64,000 nucleotides of DNA from a virus. The stretch lies in IMG/VR virus record IMGVR_UViG_3300028584_001241; one strand, 5' to 3'. Below the pieces are notes generated by a model that had not been told where the DNA came from, ran no database searches, and saw nothing but the letters and a program-made list of their open reading frames with translations. Below are positions 2,253 to 54,380 of this stretch, in pieces; positions within the stretch are counted from its first letter, which is position 1, and every line of letters begins with the position of its first letter. A program made the position numbers and the translations under genes.

Positions 2253-2975
2253 ATGGATAGATTTAGTGTTAGAGAGGATAAATTTCCATACAGTAGCAGC
2301 GTAGGTGGCTTATACCTTAACCATGCGATTGATGATAAACAATCTGTTCAAATTGCAAGAAAGCTCTCTGAAAAATGGTTGCCTGATGGGAATTGTCTGC
2401 TTGAATTAGAAATGGATATACCCCAAGCCAAACAAATTAGAGAATTAGGTAAAAAATATGTTTCATTGGTTCAAGGTAAATATGAGAAGAATAAAAAGAT
2501 TAGAAAAGTTTATTTGAATAAACTCATTGAACTGGGTTGTATTGATATGAGTGAGATATCCAAAATGTATCACGCTGACAGTATTACAGAAGACGAATAT
2601 TTAGAAAAAACAGTAATGAGAGTGCCCTTTGACTTCAACGGCATTAAAAAGATATATACAAACCTGACACTGAATAAAATGTTTTATCATATTCAACTAG
2701 ATAGGATTATAGAGTTTGTGTGTGTTGAATTATTTGTTTATAACGCTAAAATGACATTTCTCAGTAGTGACTTTGAAGGCTTAGAGTTTTGCAAGCTGTT
2801 AAAAAGTGTAGAAGTTGCGTCACCAAAAGAAACTCAAGATGAGATGTTGCATGCATGCATTAACGAACGATTACATAAGAGAATTACTAAAAAAATTGGT
2901 ATGGATGTTGATATGAATGATTTTCAAAAGAACTTCGACAGCTATAAAGCCATTTATGACATGTGGAAGGTATAA
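2253..2975 (+). CDS. hypothetical protein, paralog of 2963..3709
   Basis: Shares LPDGxCLLEL, VPFDxNG, DMWxV with the next gene; SD AAGGAG. Confidence 0.8.
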   Translation: MDRFSVREDKFPYSSSVGGLYLNHAIDDKQSVQIARKLSEKWLPDGNCLLELEMDIPQAKQIRELGKKYVSLVQGKYEKNKKIRKVYLNKLIELGCIDMSEISKMYHADSITEDEYLEKTVMRVPFDFNGIKKIYTNLTLNKMFYHIQLDRIIEFVCVELFVYNAKMTFLSSDFEGLEFCKLLKSVEVASPKETQDEMLHACINERLHKRITKKIGMDVDMNDFQKNFDSYKAIYDMWKV

Positions 2976-3709
2976 TTATGACTAAGTTTATAGTAAAAGA
3001 ATACAGTTCACCTTATCTATCAACATCTGTTAAAAATTTGATGCTAACGATAAACAACAACAATTCAGACAGAATTGCTTATGTTCATACAAAAAAATAT
3101 TTACCTGATGGAAGTTGTCTATTAGAACTCGATAGTGAAGATTTCAAAAGAGAGAGTGCAGAAAAATGGGCACCCAATAATTTTTTACAAATTAAAGACT
3201 ATGCTAAAAAATGCAGAGAGATCCGTGAAATCTATGTCAATAAATTGGTAGAATTAGGTTGTTTTAATCTTGAAGATGTTAGAATGCTTAATACATCAAA
3301 ATTTAGGTTAAAAGAAACAGAAGATACCGCTTACTTAACACGAGTACAAATACAGGTTCCTTTTGACATTAATGGTAAAAGAACAATCTATAAGAATTTA
3401 ACAGAATCGCGTTTCTATTATCATCTTGAGACAGACAGATTGATAGAGTTTATGTACAGTGAACTGTATGTTTACAATTCAAAGATGTTTTTTTTAACAA
3501 GTGATATAGAAGGATTAGAATTGTTAAACCCATTAAAACAAATTGAAGTGGCTTCAACAGAAGAAAATAGGCATAAATTTATAGAAAACTGTATTTATAC
3601 AAGGTTGTACAAAAAAATGACTAAAAAAATAGGTATAGAGGTGAGTCTGGAAGACTTTCAGAATAACTTCGACAGATACAAAATGGTATACGACATGTGG
3701 AGAGTTTAA
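2963..3709 (+). CDS. hypothetical protein, paralog of 2253..2975
   Basis: Colinear similarity to the upstream gene; likely start ATG 2978. Confidence 0.8.
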   Translation: MEGIIMTKFIVKEYSSPYLSTSVKNLMLTINNNNSDRIAYVHTKKYLPDGSCLLELDSEDFKRESAEKWAPNNFLQIKDYAKKCREIREIYVNKLVELGCFNLEDVRMLNTSKFRLKETEDTAYLTRVQIQVPFDINGKRTIYKNLTESRFYYHLETDRLIEFMYSELYVYNSKMFFLTSDIEGLELLNPLKQIEVASTEENRHKFIENCIYTRLYKKMTKKIGIEVSLEDFQNNFDRYKMVYDMWRV

Positions 3710-3712
3710 ATT

Positions 3713-4744
3713 ATGTATTTTATTGAATTTGAAAAATTAAGCAAGCTAACACCCAGCGATTGGAAAAACTCACCTGTTGGGGTTAATGCATTAAGTATAT
3801 TTAAAAGCTTGTATGAAACAAGTAAAAATCGTGACTTTCTTATTCCAAAAGCCTCTCTTCAAATAACAGAAGATTTCTTATTTGTGACATCAGCTAATAA
3901 GAATATGGTTACATTTAATCCTACCGCTGAAGACGAAAAGAAAGAATATATGAGTCATTCTTTCATTGTTAATAAAAACCACAGTAAATTTCCAACGTCT
4001 AGAATTTATGGATTAAAAGAACAACTAGAATCAAGTCCTAATATTTTGTTAGCTAAGGACGTATTCAAGTCTACTTACCGTTCTGATTTAATTCCTGAAT
4101 ACAATTATAATATAACCCTCGATTATATGACCAAGTATAAACACAATAAAGCTAACGAACATAGAAAAATATTTGATGAACAAATAAAACCGATTGCGGA
4201 TCACTGTATTAAAGAAATCATTGATGTCTTTTCTCAATATGGTGAGGTGGAATTATCACCACCCAGAAAACAAAACAGTCGAACATTAAACTATTTTATT
4301 AAAAATTCTATAAATTTCATTGTTGAAATCGCACAGAAAGAAGAATTCAAAATTGGTTCCAATGGAGAGTTGATACCTAATTTAAAACTTGAAGTTCGTT
4401 TACAACAGTCTGACGTTTATGAAAAGAAGGTAAAAGAGAAAGATGGTACCATTGTTGTTAAAAAATTTAACGAGCGGTATATAAAACAATCAGGTTATAA
4501 ACATTTCACAATTGAAATCAGAAACTTTGAATTTTTAAAGAAGCCTGCTTACTATGCTATATCAATGACACCACATGGCTATCTTCGTTTGAAAAAATCT
4601 TACTCAAAAGAATTCTTCAAAAAGATTATTTTCCATTACCAGTTCAAAAAGTATTTCGAAAAATACGAAATTGAGCTGGAATTAGACGAATTAGAAGACA
4701 ATCCACAAGCGTTTTTTGATTTAGTAGCAATGTTGAATTTTTAA
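3713..4744 (+). CDS. hypothetical protein with C-terminal M-x-x-hydrophobic tail
   Basis: 343-aa ORF ending LVAMLNF. Confidence 0.75.
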   Translation: MYFIEFEKLSKLTPSDWKNSPVGVNALSIFKSLYETSKNRDFLIPKASLQITEDFLFVTSANKNMVTFNPTAEDEKKEYMSHSFIVNKNHSKFPTSRIYGLKEQLESSPNILLAKDVFKSTYRSDLIPEYNYNITLDYMTKYKHNKANEHRKIFDEQIKPIADHCIKEIIDVFSQYGEVELSPPRKQNSRTLNYFIKNSINFIVEIAQKEEFKIGSNGELIPNLKLEVRLQQSDVYEKKVKEKDGTIVVKKFNERYIKQSGYKHFTIEIRNFEFLKKPAYYAISMTPHGYLRLKKSYSKEFFKKIIFHYQFKKYFEKYEIELELDELEDNPQAFFDLVAMLNF

Positions 4745-4745
4745 C

Positions 4746-4941
4746 TTGATTTTTTGTTTAAATTGCTTTAAGATAGAAGAATATTCACACATTAATGGAG
4801 AAATCTCATGTAACTAATTATATCACGCTAATAAATGACGAATGCATAACTAAACATATAGCATAACTATAAATCCATTTTGATGGAAGTTATCTTATGT
4901 CCTTAAAAGTCGTTTATTGCTTAATAATTAGGAGATTTCAC
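4746..4941 (+). promoter_or_regulatory. promoter plus structured leader with ATG-TAA start-stop element
   Basis: TTGATT(4746)-17-TAAGAT(4769); GGAG-7nt-ATGTAA at 4808; nested inverted repeats 4800-4939 cover the SD of the next gene. Confidence 0.65.
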
Positions 4942-5700
4942 ATGGTCACATATAGTAATGCAGTAAGACACCTCAGTAATTCCAAATGCAAAGAATTTAA
5001 CAAAAAATTTACAAATAAGATAGCCCTTGAAATATGGGGTGACGATTCATGTTGTGATTCATTTTGTTGTTGTTATGATGATGACGACTATTTAAGTGAT
5101 GAGCAATATGAATGGTCGTATGAATATATGGAAAAAAGAAGTCATTTGTTTTACGAGAACATTTCAAGTTTGAAAACTGTATTCACAACAGATTTCTTGG
5201 ATGACGTAAAAGCAAGACAATCTGCAGAAATAGACGCATTAACAGTTTATCTTAAAGTTAAAGCAAAAGATTTGATAGAAGGTTATAATTCAGAATTTTT
5301 TGCAGAGTTTTTTGATGAAGGTAATAAATATAATTTAGAATTATATGCAATGGTCAATTATAAAGATTTCGATTTAACAAAAATTAGAAGTATAGATATA
5401 GCGGTTATGAATCCTTTCAATCGTGAGGAAGGTGATTCATATGGTATGGGGCGTAATTCAATGTACAAATTTAATGTATATTATGAGAAACATACGAACA
5501 TCATGTTCTCTACGATTTCATTTTTTTATAGAAATATGCAAAGAAGAGAAATTCCAGAGTGGTGTGAGACAATGGAAGAAACGATTATGTATATGTATCT
5601 AGATGCACCGCAATATAAAAAGTTAAAAGAAATTTTTGATATAAAAGAAGTTATAAAAGATATAAGCATGTTTGATGTGTTAAAAATGTATATGGTTTAA
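4942..5700 (+). CDS. hypothetical protein with Cys/Asp-rich patch
   Basis: AGGAG at 4930 favours ATG 4942 over 4897; DDSCCDSFCCCYDDDD; ends KMYMV. Confidence 0.75.
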   Translation: MVTYSNAVRHLSNSKCKEFNKKFTNKIALEIWGDDSCCDSFCCCYDDDDYLSDEQYEWSYEYMEKRSHLFYENISSLKTVFTTDFLDDVKARQSAEIDALTVYLKVKAKDLIEGYNSEFFAEFFDEGNKYNLELYAMVNYKDFDLTKIRSIDIAVMNPFNREEGDSYGMGRNSMYKFNVYYEKHTNIMFSTISFFYRNMQRREIPEWCETMEETIMYMYLDAPQYKKLKEIFDIKEVIKDISMFDVLKMYMV

Positions 5701-5701
5701 T

Positions 5702-5725
5702 ATAATCCCTCAGTAGAGGGATTAT
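5702..5725 (+). terminator. intrinsic terminator hairpin
   Basis: ATAATCCCTC-AGTA-GAGGGATTAT directly after the stop codon. Confidence 0.65.
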
Positions 5726-5880: not shown

Positions 5881-6504
5881 ATGATTTACGAGCATTACAA
5901 GGTTAATAAAAAAAGTTTATTAGAAAATATAAGTACAGCAACAATTGTAAAGTTAGCCATACTGCTTGCACTCATATTAATATTAGCTTCTATATTAATT
6001 ACACGAGATGTTATTAACTACAAACAAAGTGTTAATCAGACCATATTAAAAGGCTATCTACAATCATTAGAATTAAAGACAGCCTATGGTTACAACCACC
6101 CAGAACAAAAAGTTGATATCGCATTAACTGAGTATGCATTGAACTATTTGGTCACTGAAAGTCAACTATGTAATAAAAAAACTCAATTAACACTAAAAGA
6201 AGACGATAAGAAAATATCCTTTATAGAGTGCCAAGAAATAACCAGAATAAGTCAAGATCCAATGGGTAAACATATAAGTGTTTTTATCCCTCAAAGGAAT
6301 AACAATGACCAATATGCTAATACACTAACAACCGTTTCTGAGTATAGATTTTTTATTGACTTTCGTGAAGGGGAACCCTCATTACTTAACTACAAATGGA
6401 ACTTGATTGATAGAAAAGGTAAGCTTAGGTCATTAGAATTCTGTGAAACACATCCTAACTTGTGTAAATACATCTATGTTGCAAAAGGAAAAAATAAGCC
6501 CTAG
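5881..6504 (+). CDS. membrane-anchored hypothetical protein
   Basis: N-terminal hydrophobic helix; ends at TAG within a hairpin. Confidence 0.7.
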   Translation: MIYEHYKVNKKSLLENISTATIVKLAILLALILILASILITRDVINYKQSVNQTILKGYLQSLELKTAYGYNHPEQKVDIALTEYALNYLVTESQLCNKKTQLTLKEDDKKISFIECQEITRISQDPMGKHISVFIPQRNNNDQYANTLTTVSEYRFFIDFREGEPSLLNYKWNLIDRKGKLRSLEFCETHPNLCKYIYVAKGKNKP

Positions 6505-6515
6505 AAAGGGCTTTT

Positions 6516-7094
6516 TTAATTTAAAATATTAATTATTTTACTATTTACAAACTTATATTCTTTATCAAGATAGCCATCGGCTAATTCTAGATCCAGTCCA
6601 TATGTTTTTGATTCTTCACTTCTCAATAAAATATCGTTGATATTTAATTGATGTTCAATCATATCAGCTATTTCTAAGAATTCTTTTTGATTATCAATCG
6701 TTTTTCTCAAACTAGACACTAATTTATTCGTTTTCTTTGCATTTATTTTAAACTTACGATTCGTTTTATAATATTTAAAAAGTTTAATTAACCATTTCAA
6801 AGAAAAGAATGCTCCAACCATTGTTAAAAAATACATTAATACCTTGCTTAAACTCTCAAAGTTATAATTGTTAATTTGTGGTGTCACTTCTTTGACAACG
6901 ACTTTAACAGGATCAGCCTTCACAACCGGCTCAGCAATAACTTTTTTGGGTAATGTTGTTGGTCTTTCAGTCTGCATTTCAATTGCTGAATTAGGTTGAT
7001 CAACTTGTTTACGACCTTCGTCTAGTGCATGGGGTGCTGAAGCAATTGCAACAACTACCATAATTGAAATGAACATTACAATAATAAGCAACAT
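6516..7094 (-). CDS. membrane protein, paralog array member 4 of 4
   Basis: Two TM segments; NNYNF motif shared across 6516-9446. Confidence 0.75.
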   Translation of the reverse strand: MLLIIVMFISIMVVVAIASAPHALDEGRKQVDQPNSAIEMQTERPTTLPKKVIAEPVVKADPVKVVVKEVTPQINNYNFESLSKVLMYFLTMVGAFFSLKWLIKLFKYYKTNRKFKINAKKTNKLVSSLRKTIDNQKEFLEIADMIEHQLNINDILLRSEESKTYGLDLELADGYLDKEYKFVNSKIINILN

Positions 7095-9638: not shown

Positions 9639-9671
9639 TATAACTGTAAATCAAACAAAGGAGATTACATC

Positions 9672-10133
9672 ATGTTGTAGATTGATAATACTGAATTCGA
9701 CTTCATCACAAAAGAGGCTATTCTTAGCCAATACACTCAATTTGTTCCTTCGGACAAAGACTCACATTACTACATCTATTCAATCATTCGCGGCGATTTA
9801 AATATGCCAACAGGTAAGCTCGCAGCTCAAGCTGGTCACGCTTATACAGATGCATTGACAAACGCACAAGAATCACACCCAGATAACGTTAAACATTATA
9901 GAAATCGTCAATCAGGCGGCTCTAAGGTTACGTTAAAAGCCAAAAACGAAGATCATTTAATTAAAGCATACAACCAAGCTGTTGCTGCTGGATTGCCATG
10001 CTCAATTATTGTCGATCAAGGCCACGTTTTACCACCACACTTTGATGGTTCGCCAATCATTACCGCTCTCGGTATTGGGCCTTGCACCAAAGAACAAGTA
10101 AAACAAATCACCAAGAAATTTCAGTGTGTATAA
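9672..10133 (+). CDS. pth2: peptidyl-tRNA hydrolase Pth2 family, with in-frame TAG at codon 3
   Basis: YIYSIIRGDLNMPTGKLAAQAGHA, KVTLK, DQG, TALGIGP are Pth2 motifs; SD AAGGAG then ATG TTG TAG ATT; the conserved first strand lies upstream of the track's ATG 9804. Confidence 0.85.
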
Positions 10134-11269: not shown

Positions 11270-11297
11270 TCAAAAACTAACCATTAGGAGAATGACC

Positions 11298-11897
11298 ATG
11301 ACTATGTAGATTGATAAAATTGAAAACCTTAGCTTCAACGATCTTGTTAAAGAGATGAAAGCTTGTGAACAAACACAAGGCATGAATGTTCTTCAACATG
11401 GATTGTCAGTCAATAAATACTTTCAGGATTTGAAAGATCACATTATTGATGGAAAACCATTAGCTCTCGAATGGAGACTTCCTGATTGGATTTACAATAA
11501 ATCTATCTGGAGTAACTTGGCAGATGACAAAGACATCAAAACCTATCAGATTTATCACGACTGTGGTAAGCCATTCTGTTTGACAATTGATGAAAATGGT
11601 AACCGTCACTTCCCTGACCATGCACAAGCATCTGGTCTAATCTGGCGTAAAATCGGTGGCACTGAACTTCAAGCTCAATTGATGGAGCATGATATGGATA
11701 TTCATTTGCTTAAAATGGATGACTTTGAAGATTTCTATGCACTTCCGTTCGCTGCAACCCTATTGATTACTGGTTTCTGTGAGATTCACAGCAATGCTGC
11801 TATGTTTGGTGGTATTGAATCAACAAGTTTTAAAATCAAGTGGAAAAAGATTAACAAAATCGGCAAAAAATTTAATGATAAACTATTAGGAGAATAA
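11298..11897 (+). CDS. HD-domain phosphohydrolase with in-frame TAG at codon 4
   Basis: QHG...YHDCGKP...HFPDHA...EHDMDIH; AGGAG-7nt-ATG ACT ATG TAG ATT GAT, open in frame into ATG 11355. Confidence 0.8.
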
Positions 11898-38381: not shown

Positions 38382-39383
38382 TTAACTATGCAAATAAAGC
38401 TTATAATTTTCCGGTTTATATTCTTGTATAACGCCATCAATAGATGTCCAAAACCGTGCCATTAAACATTTTGGTGGCCTTTCGTCAGTTTCATAATAAT
38501 ACTCAATGACAATGGAATCATTTTTCTTTATCTGATCCAACGCAATATCTTTTGAATCCTCATCAAAGCCGGGATAACTATCACTACGCATAATGCAATA
38601 ATCACCCGATGGATGAAGTTTTTGAACTATTGCTTTAAACCCCTTATCAGTCACTACCATATAACGTTTAGAATAAATTTTACCATCAATTTTTCTTTGG
38701 TGACTAAATAATTTATTTTTAAAGTACACAATATCCTTATGTTTAGACGTTCCCATCATTAGTTTTCTTACATTTGAGCCAAATAACAAACCCGCGTATT
38801 TTTCGACAGGGTTATACTCATTGAATAGTTTCACTAACTTTTCTGATGTCTCAACAGGGATTCCAATTGTCTTAAAATGATCTAATTTCTCAATTATTTC
38901 GCTGCCAAAATAAATCGAATGGCCTTCTTCTGCATTGTGCCCCATAATGTCAATAATCATATTGCCATAATCAACATAAATTGATGATTTATAAATAGCG
39001 GGTTCATTATCTATGATTTCTTTGTATTTTTGAATAAAGACAGCCTCTCTGGAATTTTGAATAGTTTCCAATGGCGTGTATGGAATTAAATTGCCATCGA
39101 GTGTTCGATAGAGAACAGTTCCGTCTGCCCAATCATGTGGTGGTCGTGTTAAGGGCAACATCTTGTCAGCAACTAACAACGGCTCATTCAATGAACTGAT
39201 TGGCAATGTCGATTCTTTTTCAAGGATTGTTTGCATTTCAAAATAGTTAGCAGCACCCAATGTTTCAGAAAACAGTTCCTGAGCTTGTGATAATGTTATT
39301 TTTAGACCATATTTTTCTGCATTCTTTTGTAGTCTTTTGGTGTAGCGATTAAAATTTTTCGAATTGATGCTAATGTTTGACAT
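38382..39383 (-). CDS. protein with Glyoxalase_8-like N-terminal helical domain
   Basis: KRLQK...GLKITLSQAQELFSETLG..NY. Confidence 0.6.
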   Translation of the reverse strand: MSNISINSKNFNRYTKRLQKNAEKYGLKITLSQAQELFSETLGAANYFEMQTILEKESTLPISSLNEPLLVADKMLPLTRPPHDWADGTVLYRTLDGNLIPYTPLETIQNSREAVFIQKYKEIIDNEPAIYKSSIYVDYGNMIIDIMGHNAEEGHSIYFGSEIIEKLDHFKTIGIPVETSEKLVKLFNEYNPVEKYAGLLFGSNVRKLMMGTSKHKDIVYFKNKLFSHQRKIDGKIYSKRYMVVTDKGFKAIVQKLHPSGDYCIMRSDSYPGFDEDSKDIALDQIKKNDSIVIEYYYETDERPPKCLMARFWTSIDGVIQEYKPENYKLYLHS

Positions 39384-54091: not shown

Positions 54092-54120
54092 AAAAAAAAA
54101 GAGAGTCTTTCGACTCTCTT
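54092..54120 (-). terminator. intrinsic terminator of the GGA-rich RNA
   Basis: Minus strand GAGAGTC-GAAA-GACTCTC followed by a run of about 9 T. Confidence 0.85.
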
Positions 54121-54380
54121 ATCATTCCTTTGGTTTCTTACATCCATTAAAACAAATTAACGCTCCGTGTACATAAACTAGAACATATTCCATCTATCAT
54201 TCTAATTTTTCTTCCTTTTCCTTGTAACAGTCCTTTATAGAGTGAGTCCTTAACTTATCATCCTGATAATTGCTGCATCCTTAAATCACTATTCCTTTTT
54301 TTATTGTCGTCCATTACACTTGCCAGCCCACACTCAAAATCATTTCTTATGCAGTTATTCTTATTGTTTCCTTGCTGACA
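54092..54380 (-). ncRNA. CsrB/RsmZ-like GGA-repeat small RNA (candidate)
   Basis: 13 GGA motifs on the minus strand (12 ANGGA, 1 CAGGAUG), no ORF in the track, own promoter and terminator. Confidence 0.8.

Follow-up and report, generated by a model that had tools for sequence, protein, structure and literature searches.

The 197-nt spacer between two plus-strand open reading frames (ORFs; 3713–4744 and 4942–5700) of the IMG/VR record IMGVR_UViG_3300028584_001241 is best explained as carrying the ~160-nt 5' leader of an orphan gene. The record was analyzed as a window of 64,000 nt (64 kb), and all coordinates count from its first letter as position 1. The leader folds into a long hairpin that buries the Shine-Dalgarno (SD) sequence of gene 4942–5700, and its 5' arm carries, in a bulge, a start codon followed at once by a stop codon (a start-stop) with an SD of its own. 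We consider it probable that this is a real, conserved and gene-specific SD-sequestering leader. Of the readings of this anatomy, the best is that a ribosome occupying the start-stop opens the hairpin, a plausible view which we hold tentatively on the basis of modeled folds.

The upstream SD, GGAG, lies on the plus strand at 4797–4800, 7 nt ahead of ATG 4808–4810 (spacer AAATCTC), and TAA follows directly at 4811–4813. The start-stop's spacer forms the 5' arm of stem 1 (GAAATCTC, 4800–4807), which pairs at 8 of 8 positions with GAGATTTC (4932–4939). Stem 2 is likewise perfect over eight pairs, joining CTAATTAT (4814–4821) to ATAATTAG (4924–4931), and the start-stop fills the 6-nt bulge between the two stems. 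Further in, GC plus AATAAATGAC make up the 5' arm of stem 3 (4827–4839), which pairs with 4909–4920; here the inverted-repeat finder matched AATAAATGAC (4830–4839) to GTCGTTTATT (4909–4918) at 9 of 10 positions plus a U·G pair. An apical hairpin (4854–4900) is closed by ACATA/TATGT and AG/CT, followed by ATAACT (4863–4868) with AGTTAT (4888–4893) and TCCAT (4874–4878) with ATGGA (4883–4887). The 3' arm of stems 3, 2 and 1 (4909–4939) includes AGGAG (4930–4934), the true SD of gene 4942–5700. The two basal 8-bp stems take in this motif entirely, the bulge lying opposite the G4931/G4932 junction, and the imperfect hairpin measures 140 nt in total (4800–4939). Instead of a U-tract, ACAUGGUCAC follows the stem, and the hairpin was not listed in the intrinsic-terminator scan.

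The start-stop is out of frame with ATG 4942, 134 nt away, and nothing coding lies behind it. No sense codon follows AUG 4808 and the next frames close within five codons, which leaves neither a leader peptide nor a codon at which a ribosome could dwell. The element nonetheless has the sequence hallmarks of a bacterial start-stop (an SD-like motif, a start codon and an immediate stop), and, as in leader ORFs, a frame with its own ribosome-binding site (RBS) overlaps the masking strand, its spacer being stem 1 and the next 8 nt stem 2. An earlier reading of the sequence, made without database searches (the sequence-only reading), had proposed GGAG-7nt-ATG TAA at 4808–4813, nested complementarity behind it, sequestration of AGGAG by the outer stems and placement of ATGTAA in a 5'-arm bulge. 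All of this was borne out. Direct reading confirmed every coordinate of the start-stop and its SD, the inverted-repeat finder returned the three outer arm pairs, the helix list of the minimum free energy (MFE) structure contained the two tip pairs, and the bulge and the burial of AGGAG were seen in both the MFE and the centroid fold.

Both of these folds, computed for 4781–4960, consist of the one nested hairpin (−34.0 kcal/mol; z-score −2.08; equaled by 7 of 200 shuffles). Taken alone, the fold of the window's own leader is marginal. Ensemble probabilities of being unpaired were 0.99–1.00 for AUGUAA, 0.00–0.01 for the true SD and 0.82–0.87 for G4798 and A4799 of the upstream SD. Among the 41 leaders of at least 90 nt in the window, burial of the SD ranks first (mean unpaired probability 0.00, the next being 0.13); by fold z-score the leader ranks eighth.

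A long, AU-rich hairpin with bulges and loops that holds an SD has the general look of the prfA leader, an RNA thermometer that melts with heat to expose its SD. In silico, this hairpin does not melt in that way. The true SD is unpaired with a probability of 0.001 at 15 °C, 0.004 at 37 °C and 0.016 at 50 °C, without opening of stem 1 or stem 2, and exposing the RBS at 37 °C costs ~11 kcal/mol. A prfA-type thermometer is consequently very unlikely, and because the lock does not yield to heat in silico, an active opener is needed.

A promoter-like site precedes the leader on the plus strand (4746–4774), with a −35 hexamer TTGATT (4746–4751), a 17-nt spacer and a −10 hexamer TAAGAT (4769–4774). 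The hexamers stand where the sequence-only reading had placed a promoter, and both are kept in the related leaders described below (L002/L005 and L004), the spacer being variable. The strength of the proposed promoter fared less well, as only 8 of the site's 12 positions agree with the consensus, and it so went unlisted by a promoter scan with a threshold of 9/12. From this site, transcription is predicted to start near 4781. Upstream placement matters for comparison with T4 genes e, soc, 49 and I-TevI, in which a hairpin hides the RBS, a promoter lies between its arms and a short transcript escapes. As in those genes, the SD of the downstream gene is paired to an upstream arm within a conserved hairpin. 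Unlike in the T4 type, both arms come after the sole conserved promoter-like site, no plus-strand promoter of at least 9/12 was found within 4800–4940 by the scan, and the interior is not conserved. TATAAAT at 4868–4874, within the hairpin, is not kept in relatives.

Conservation was assessed across three distinct leaders, those of the window, of L002 (identical to L001 and L005) and of L004. The L002 leader occurs on a 181-kb IMG/VR record and on a 1.86-Mb metagenome contig, where the encoded protein is 79% identical to that of gene 4942–5700; it was found via this protein and is therefore unbiased regarding the start-stop. L004 encodes a P0005-type protein with 65% identity. Both L002 (z −2.80, 2 of 200 shuffles) and L004 (z −3.97, 0 of 200) have an MFE structure of this architecture, down to the AUGUAA bulge. 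Sliding identity was 87–100% over the promoter hexamers and the 5' arm, level with the best-conserved coding parts, 40–60% over the tip and intermediate over the 3' arm. The diverged tips of the three leaders still fold when taken alone (z −1.99, −2.02 and −2.57). The stem 3 imperfection differs in each homologue, being U·G in the window and A·C at different positions in L002 and L004, and the last pair of stem 2 is compensatory in L004 (U-A to A-U).

The upstream GGAG (4797–4800) is kept in L002 and extended to AGGAG in L004. This extension arises from a U4796-to-A change (UGGAG to AGGAG), the sole change beside the upstream SD, which costs one predicted pair and strengthens the SD. Though a single observation, it would favor SD function for the motif.

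A search of viral contigs returned one contig (L001, L002 and L006) plus L003, a chance match that proved unrelated on alignment and was left out of later alignments. No DNA of further relatives was found in genome contigs searched by protein, alignment and 19-mer or in metagenome contigs searched by alignment; contig scans with P0007 and P0008, two distant members, were equally empty, and the leader had no blastn match in phage and plasmid collections. Since the element is conserved in the relatives found and has the most sequestered SD of the 41 leaders, we place it above chance.

Strain variation was read from contigs of four other DNA runs aligned on 4650–5050; a search for RNA runs containing the stretch found none. 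Differences were many at 4687–4790 and 4843–4913, and none is listed within 4791–4842 in any run; the listing leaves 20 further differences unprinted, and record 16 of run X6 (low depth) carries 15 that could not be placed. In both mixed-strain runs where it is present (X4 and X5), a 52-nt unitig coincides exactly with 4791–4842, with zero differences and summed depth. The 3' arm varies more, as its stem 3 part is altered in each homologue and variants at the 3' foot of stem 1 occur in X11 and X6. Because pairing alone does not explain the stricter conservation of the 5' arm, something reads this arm as sequence.

That reader is not necessarily a ribosome. The hairpin could be a real cis-repressor opened by something else. 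One candidate is RNase III, known for cleaving long duplexes in the leaders of lambda N and the T7 early genes; another is a 5'-arm-binding protein or small RNA, such as CsrA on AAUGGAG, destabilizing or guarding the helix as in ymdA-type activation. With such an opener, ATG-TAA would be either incidental or a spurious start that the immediate stop neutralizes, an idea raised in the excerpted text of bioRxiv 10.1101/520783. The stricter conservation of the 5' arm than of its partner is consistent with such a sequence-specific factor, as is the presence of both AAUGGAG and UUAGGAG in the leader itself. A GGA-rich, gene-free gap at ~54100–54380 contains A[A/U]GGA 11 times on the minus strand (counted by eye). 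A duplex that does not melt thermally likewise calls for an enzyme or factor, and neither the frequency of start-stops in the window nor the energetics of the upstream site, both given below, single out a ribosome. What another opener leaves unexplained is why the 6-nt bulge is exactly AUG-UAA, 7 nt behind an SD typical of the genome, and the change in L004 betters that SD at the cost of one pair. CsrA, moreover, prefers GGA in loops, and the second GGA of the leader is fully paired. We regard an opener of this kind as a serious possibility, without thinking it likely.

Ribosomal opening at the start-stop was modeled by setting the footprint, about −14 to +13 around A4808, single-stranded in the fold. 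This raised the exposure of the true SD ~100-fold in every leader, from 0.004 to 0.44 in the window, from 0.007 to 0.42 in L002 and from 0.003 to 0.43 in L004, while stem 3 and the tip remained folded. A ribosome on the start-stop would thus unmask the true site, and to this extent the claim of the sequence-only reading that such a ribosome melts the anti-SD arm stands in silico for all three leaders. Exposing the SD alone is also cheaper upstream (3.5–4.7 kcal/mol) than at the true site (8.3–9.8 kcal/mol).

We propose that a 30S subunit might dock on the half-exposed upstream SD as a standby site. The bulged AUG would be captured when stem 1 breathes, or else loading would precede transcription of the 3' arm. 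An initiating or terminating 70S ribosome would cover ~4794–4823 and strip the anti-SD arm from the true RBS, whereupon a second ribosome could start at 4942, such that expression of the gene would be licensed by occupancy of the start-stop. Candidate inputs to this occupancy would be free ribosomes or initiation capacity, the speed of release or recycling, or a factor that blocks the upstream SD. In a stronger version, the zero-length ORF would act as an elongation-free key with the ribosome as unlocking ligand. The ribosome would need only to start, release and recycle, and the output would track initiation capacity or dwell time, and with these the activity of release factor (RF) and ribosome recycling factor (RRF) or the presence of drugs causing ribosomes to stall at start codons. 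We think this version possible, if rather doubtful. That the start-stop specifically senses termination or recycling speed, pure inference on the part of the sequence-only reading, is unlikely. The foot-to-foot geometry of the hairpin could also allow a terminating subunit to be handed over directly across the helix to the true start.

Several findings weigh against a ribosome on the start-stop as the opener, or limit what it could achieve. Opening the full footprint costs 12.5–12.9 kcal/mol at the start-stop versus 10.7–11.5 kcal/mol at the true RBS. Because one pair of helices locks the two sites alike, the upstream site has no thermodynamic advantage; as its full footprint costs as much as that of the true RBS, the start-stop could help only kinetically. 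Folds of the nascent RNA leave the upstream SD only 0.18–0.29 unpaired, with ~0.6–0.8 for the spacer and 0.26–0.69 for AUGUAA. The invariant block of the strains includes the start-stop, whose own selection is inseparable from that of the 5' arm, and a ribosome would account for constraint on 4797–4813, not obviously for that on 4822–4842. Only three distinct leaders were compared, and L004 was found by a gapped pattern requiring ATGTAA and AGGAGATTTC, which keeps its start-stop by construction; the same pattern also returned L005. The combination of SD, ATG and stop is not enriched in the window (7 seen versus 7.7 ± 2.5 expected), and across the many windows scanned a coincidence of start-stop and hairpin will occur. 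No second start-stop leader was found in the 64 kb plus the related 181 kb.

Covariation among homologues, which had been put forward as a check, adds to these points. Of the 31 basal pairs, 25 are invariant, one is compensatory and two changed on one side only, with three cells broken; 179 of 500 shuffles scored as high, which is not significant with three leaders. Because covariation is weak, the case for the structure rests instead on conservation, on independent folding of the three homologues and on a tip that has diverged yet still folds. The same weakness, with the marginal fold and its eighth place of 41 by z-score, is what one would expect of an AT-rich spacer without function that folds by chance and has been kept by short divergence time. 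Against such a spacer, the proteins have diverged to 65–79% identity and the tip to 40–60% while the basal arms still show 87–100%; all three tips fold, and burial of the SD is the tightest of the 41 leaders. Lack of function is in our view decidedly improbable.

In the nascent folds, the upstream GAG (4798–4807 region) can pair with the CUC later taken by the true SD, and AUGUAA (4808–4823 region) with UUAUAU. Both are weak local alternatives that would be displaced once the 3' arm has been made.

The minus strand of the leader folds about as well as the plus strand, at −34.4, −36.0 and −36.1 kcal/mol (z −1.67, −2.39 and −3.56), which also counts against an RNA device and raises the question whether the functional unit lies in DNA or on the minus strand, as an operator below the promoter or an antisense transcript or promoter, with the plus-strand hairpin a by-product of the dyad. 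Two of the three stem 3 imperfections are A·C on the plus strand and would be G·U on the minus strand. The minus strand also reads TGATATAAT, with the shape of an extended −10, at 4825–4817 within the invariant 5' arm, and, counted from the putative promoter, the invariant block spans roughly +10 to +62. However, the plus-strand z-score is better in all three leaders (−2.08, −2.80 and −3.97), the flanking genes and the promoter-like site are all on the plus strand, and the pairing falls exactly on the SD of the gene that follows. The promoter scan lists no minus-strand site in 4320–5357 and no minus-strand ORF of at least 30 aa is present here, and the TGnTATAAT form becomes TGTATTAAT in L004. 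A unit of this type is therefore judged unlikely. The minus-strand TGATATAAT would point leftwards, into the antisense of the end of the upstream gene.

Within its genome, the start-stop stands out by position and not by its RBS. It is the only one of the window's start-stops to lie in a sense leader, and the 181-kb related record has only the orthologue; the leader start-stop is a gene-specific device, not a genome-wide habit. Its RBS is typical of this genome in motif and spacing. An SD-like motif lies 4–10 nt ahead of the longest-ORF start in 36 of 74 crude gene calls, 18 of these being AGGAG, and AGGAG or GGAG lies at 5–10 nt ahead of 20 of the 74. Gene 38382–39383 uses AATGGAGAA-7-ATG, nearly identical to the sequence preceding the start-stop.

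A dispersed repeat of the REP/REPIN-like kind was considered and rejected for the window and the 181-kb record. A 17-mer allowing up to 3 mismatches found itself and one chance match in the window, no match longer than 15 nt came from blastn-short of the 200 nt on the window, and the 181-kb record has one copy. No Rfam family was assigned to the stretch (best match E-value 0.41, 24 bits against a 72-bit threshold), and nothing in the whole window reached an Rfam gathering score.

The sequence-only reading had also likened the leader to two amber cassettes elsewhere in the window, a parallel that failed. One, at 9672 (stretch 9655–9810), reads AGGAG-8-ATG TTG TAG, and the other, at 11298 (stretch 11285–11360), reads AGGAG-7-ATG ACT ATG TAG. 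Each TAG stands directly ahead of ATT GAT AA and shares the reading frame of the next ORF (9804–10133 and 11355–11897, respectively), whereas ATG-TAA 4808 is out of frame with its gene. The stretch up to each ORF is open (41 and 15 codons) and both begin I-D-x-x-E; TAG is the stop of 7 of the 74 crude gene calls. The region 9640–9825 folds with a z-score of −0.53, and the cassettes are not leader hairpin devices. Their sequence suggests either that the two are N-termini of paralogues and contain TAG in frame, or that each is a start-TAG unit which would hand over to the next codon.

Gene 4942–5700 (plus strand) encodes an orphan protein of 252 aa with a Cys-rich, acidic N-terminal part and the C-terminus KMYMV. 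Its family comprises 11 representative clusters among 1.84 billion proteins, and six close homologous clusters were found at 62–99% identity. The called start aligns with M1 (ATG 4942) in five of these six clusters, the sixth having an N-terminal extension; an alternative in-frame start at ATG 4897 is not conserved and was rejected. The protein matched no Pfam family, gave no usable Atlas match and has no paralogue within the window, and its AlphaFold2 model is unusable (predicted local distance difference test score, pLDDT, 44). Residues 30–60 (within 4942–5100 of the window) hold a Cys cluster, CC..CCC, followed by acidic DDDD, which is kept family-wide with varying length. The protein is possibly secreted. 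With its own promoter-like site, leader and terminator, the gene looks like a single-gene unit. Terminator-like hairpins lie at 5702–5725, right behind the gene, and at 6496–6513, between the convergent genes 5881–6504 and 6516–7094, where the hairpin can be read as a terminator on either strand.

The gene belongs to an uncultured AT-rich bacterium. The window has ~30% G+C and no transfer RNA genes, and it carries OmpA-family, ClpB-like, CoaE and RNA-ligase genes among many orphans. The related sequence is filed both as the 181-kb IMG/VR "provirus" (CheckV completeness 58) and inside the 1.86-Mb metagenome contig, and the viral label of the 181-kb record may be doubtful. Upstream of the leader, tandem paralogues at 2253–2975 (240 aa) and 2963–3709 (248 aa) share a 13-nt overlap, and their C-termini are YDMWKV and YDMWRV. 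Where the window has three ORFs (240, 248 and 343 aa), the related locus L001 has one of the paralogues' size (1035–1757) followed by a 347-aa ORF (1745–2788). VAMLNF and KMYMV are the C-termini of the proteins on either side of the leader, each with Met four residues from the end.

Unmasking by translation of a leader ORF is an established principle, exemplified by the ermC and cat leader peptides and by tap-repA and repY-repZ of IncFII and IncI plasmids. In Salmonella, translation of the 8-codon mgtQ is described in excerpts of PMC8092293 as freeing the mgtB ribosome-binding sequence from an inhibitory stem-loop. The present leader resembles mgtQ, ermC and tap-repA in that the true SD lies in a stem-loop whose masking strand contains a small upstream frame, itself preceded by an SD; by analogy, a ribosome on that frame would free the downstream site. 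It differs from them in having zero sense codons, and hence no peptide, codon choice or elongation arrest as a signal, and in the far greater length of its hairpin (140 nt).

Start-stops themselves have been described in E. coli, where bioRxiv 10.1101/520783 reports 14 out-of-frame internal starts with an immediate stop that are bound by ribosomes, for example in yecJ and hslR. The yecJ start-stop lowers expression of its host gene by ~16%, and the same text leaves the purpose of these sites open, proposing a regulatory role since no product is possible (bioRxiv 10.1101/520783). Putative start-stop sites are listed in Campylobacter in a passage of PMC11955535, an engineered AUGxxxUGA restored part of ptrB expression according to a section of PMC4965119, and in Sinorhizobium upstream RBSs couple to or occlude the main RBS, as a portion of PMC13285730 states. 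The window's element shares with the E. coli start-stops an SD-like sequence, a start codon and an immediate stop. Unlike those, which are intragenic and mild brakes where tested, it lies in the anti-SD arm of a 5' leader and would activate.

Among eukaryotes, the start-stop in the 5' untranslated region (5'-UTR) of Arabidopsis NIP5;1 is AUGUAA. Extracts of PMC13338717 and bioRxiv 10.1101/2021.07.26.453809 describe further 5'-UTR start-stop elements. Such elements are likewise elongation-free AUG-stop units in a leader, and that of NIP5;1 has the same six letters, but they are scanning-dependent repressive gates without an SD and unmask no hidden RBS. In pararetroviral shunting, a short ORF ends just ahead of a long hairpin and the ribosome lands beyond it. 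The plant pararetrovirus shunt is covered in a part of PMC5902531. Both arrangements place a very short ORF at one foot of a long leader hairpin and the main start just beyond the opposite one, although the shunt is a eukaryotic scanning mechanism. Within a limited full-text collection, our literature search found no bacterial leader start-stop that opens an SD-hiding hairpin. To our knowledge, no bacterial ribosome shunt has been described.

Leader-ORF unmasking is thus a known kind of control; what is new here is a conserved leader start-stop whose anatomy predicts strong, easily tested activation by unmasking. If this holds, it would be a minimal form of translation attenuation, in which a ribosome regulates a gene without making a peptide bond. 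It could provide a compact part for synthetic control and possibly a natural reporter of initiation or termination capacity, and hand-over across the helix, if it occurs, would be a prokaryotic counterpart of the pararetroviral shunt. Should the start-stop reading fail, the leader would still stand out in being conserved and in locking the translation of an orphan, possibly secreted, protein of an uncultured bacterium with unusual tightness.

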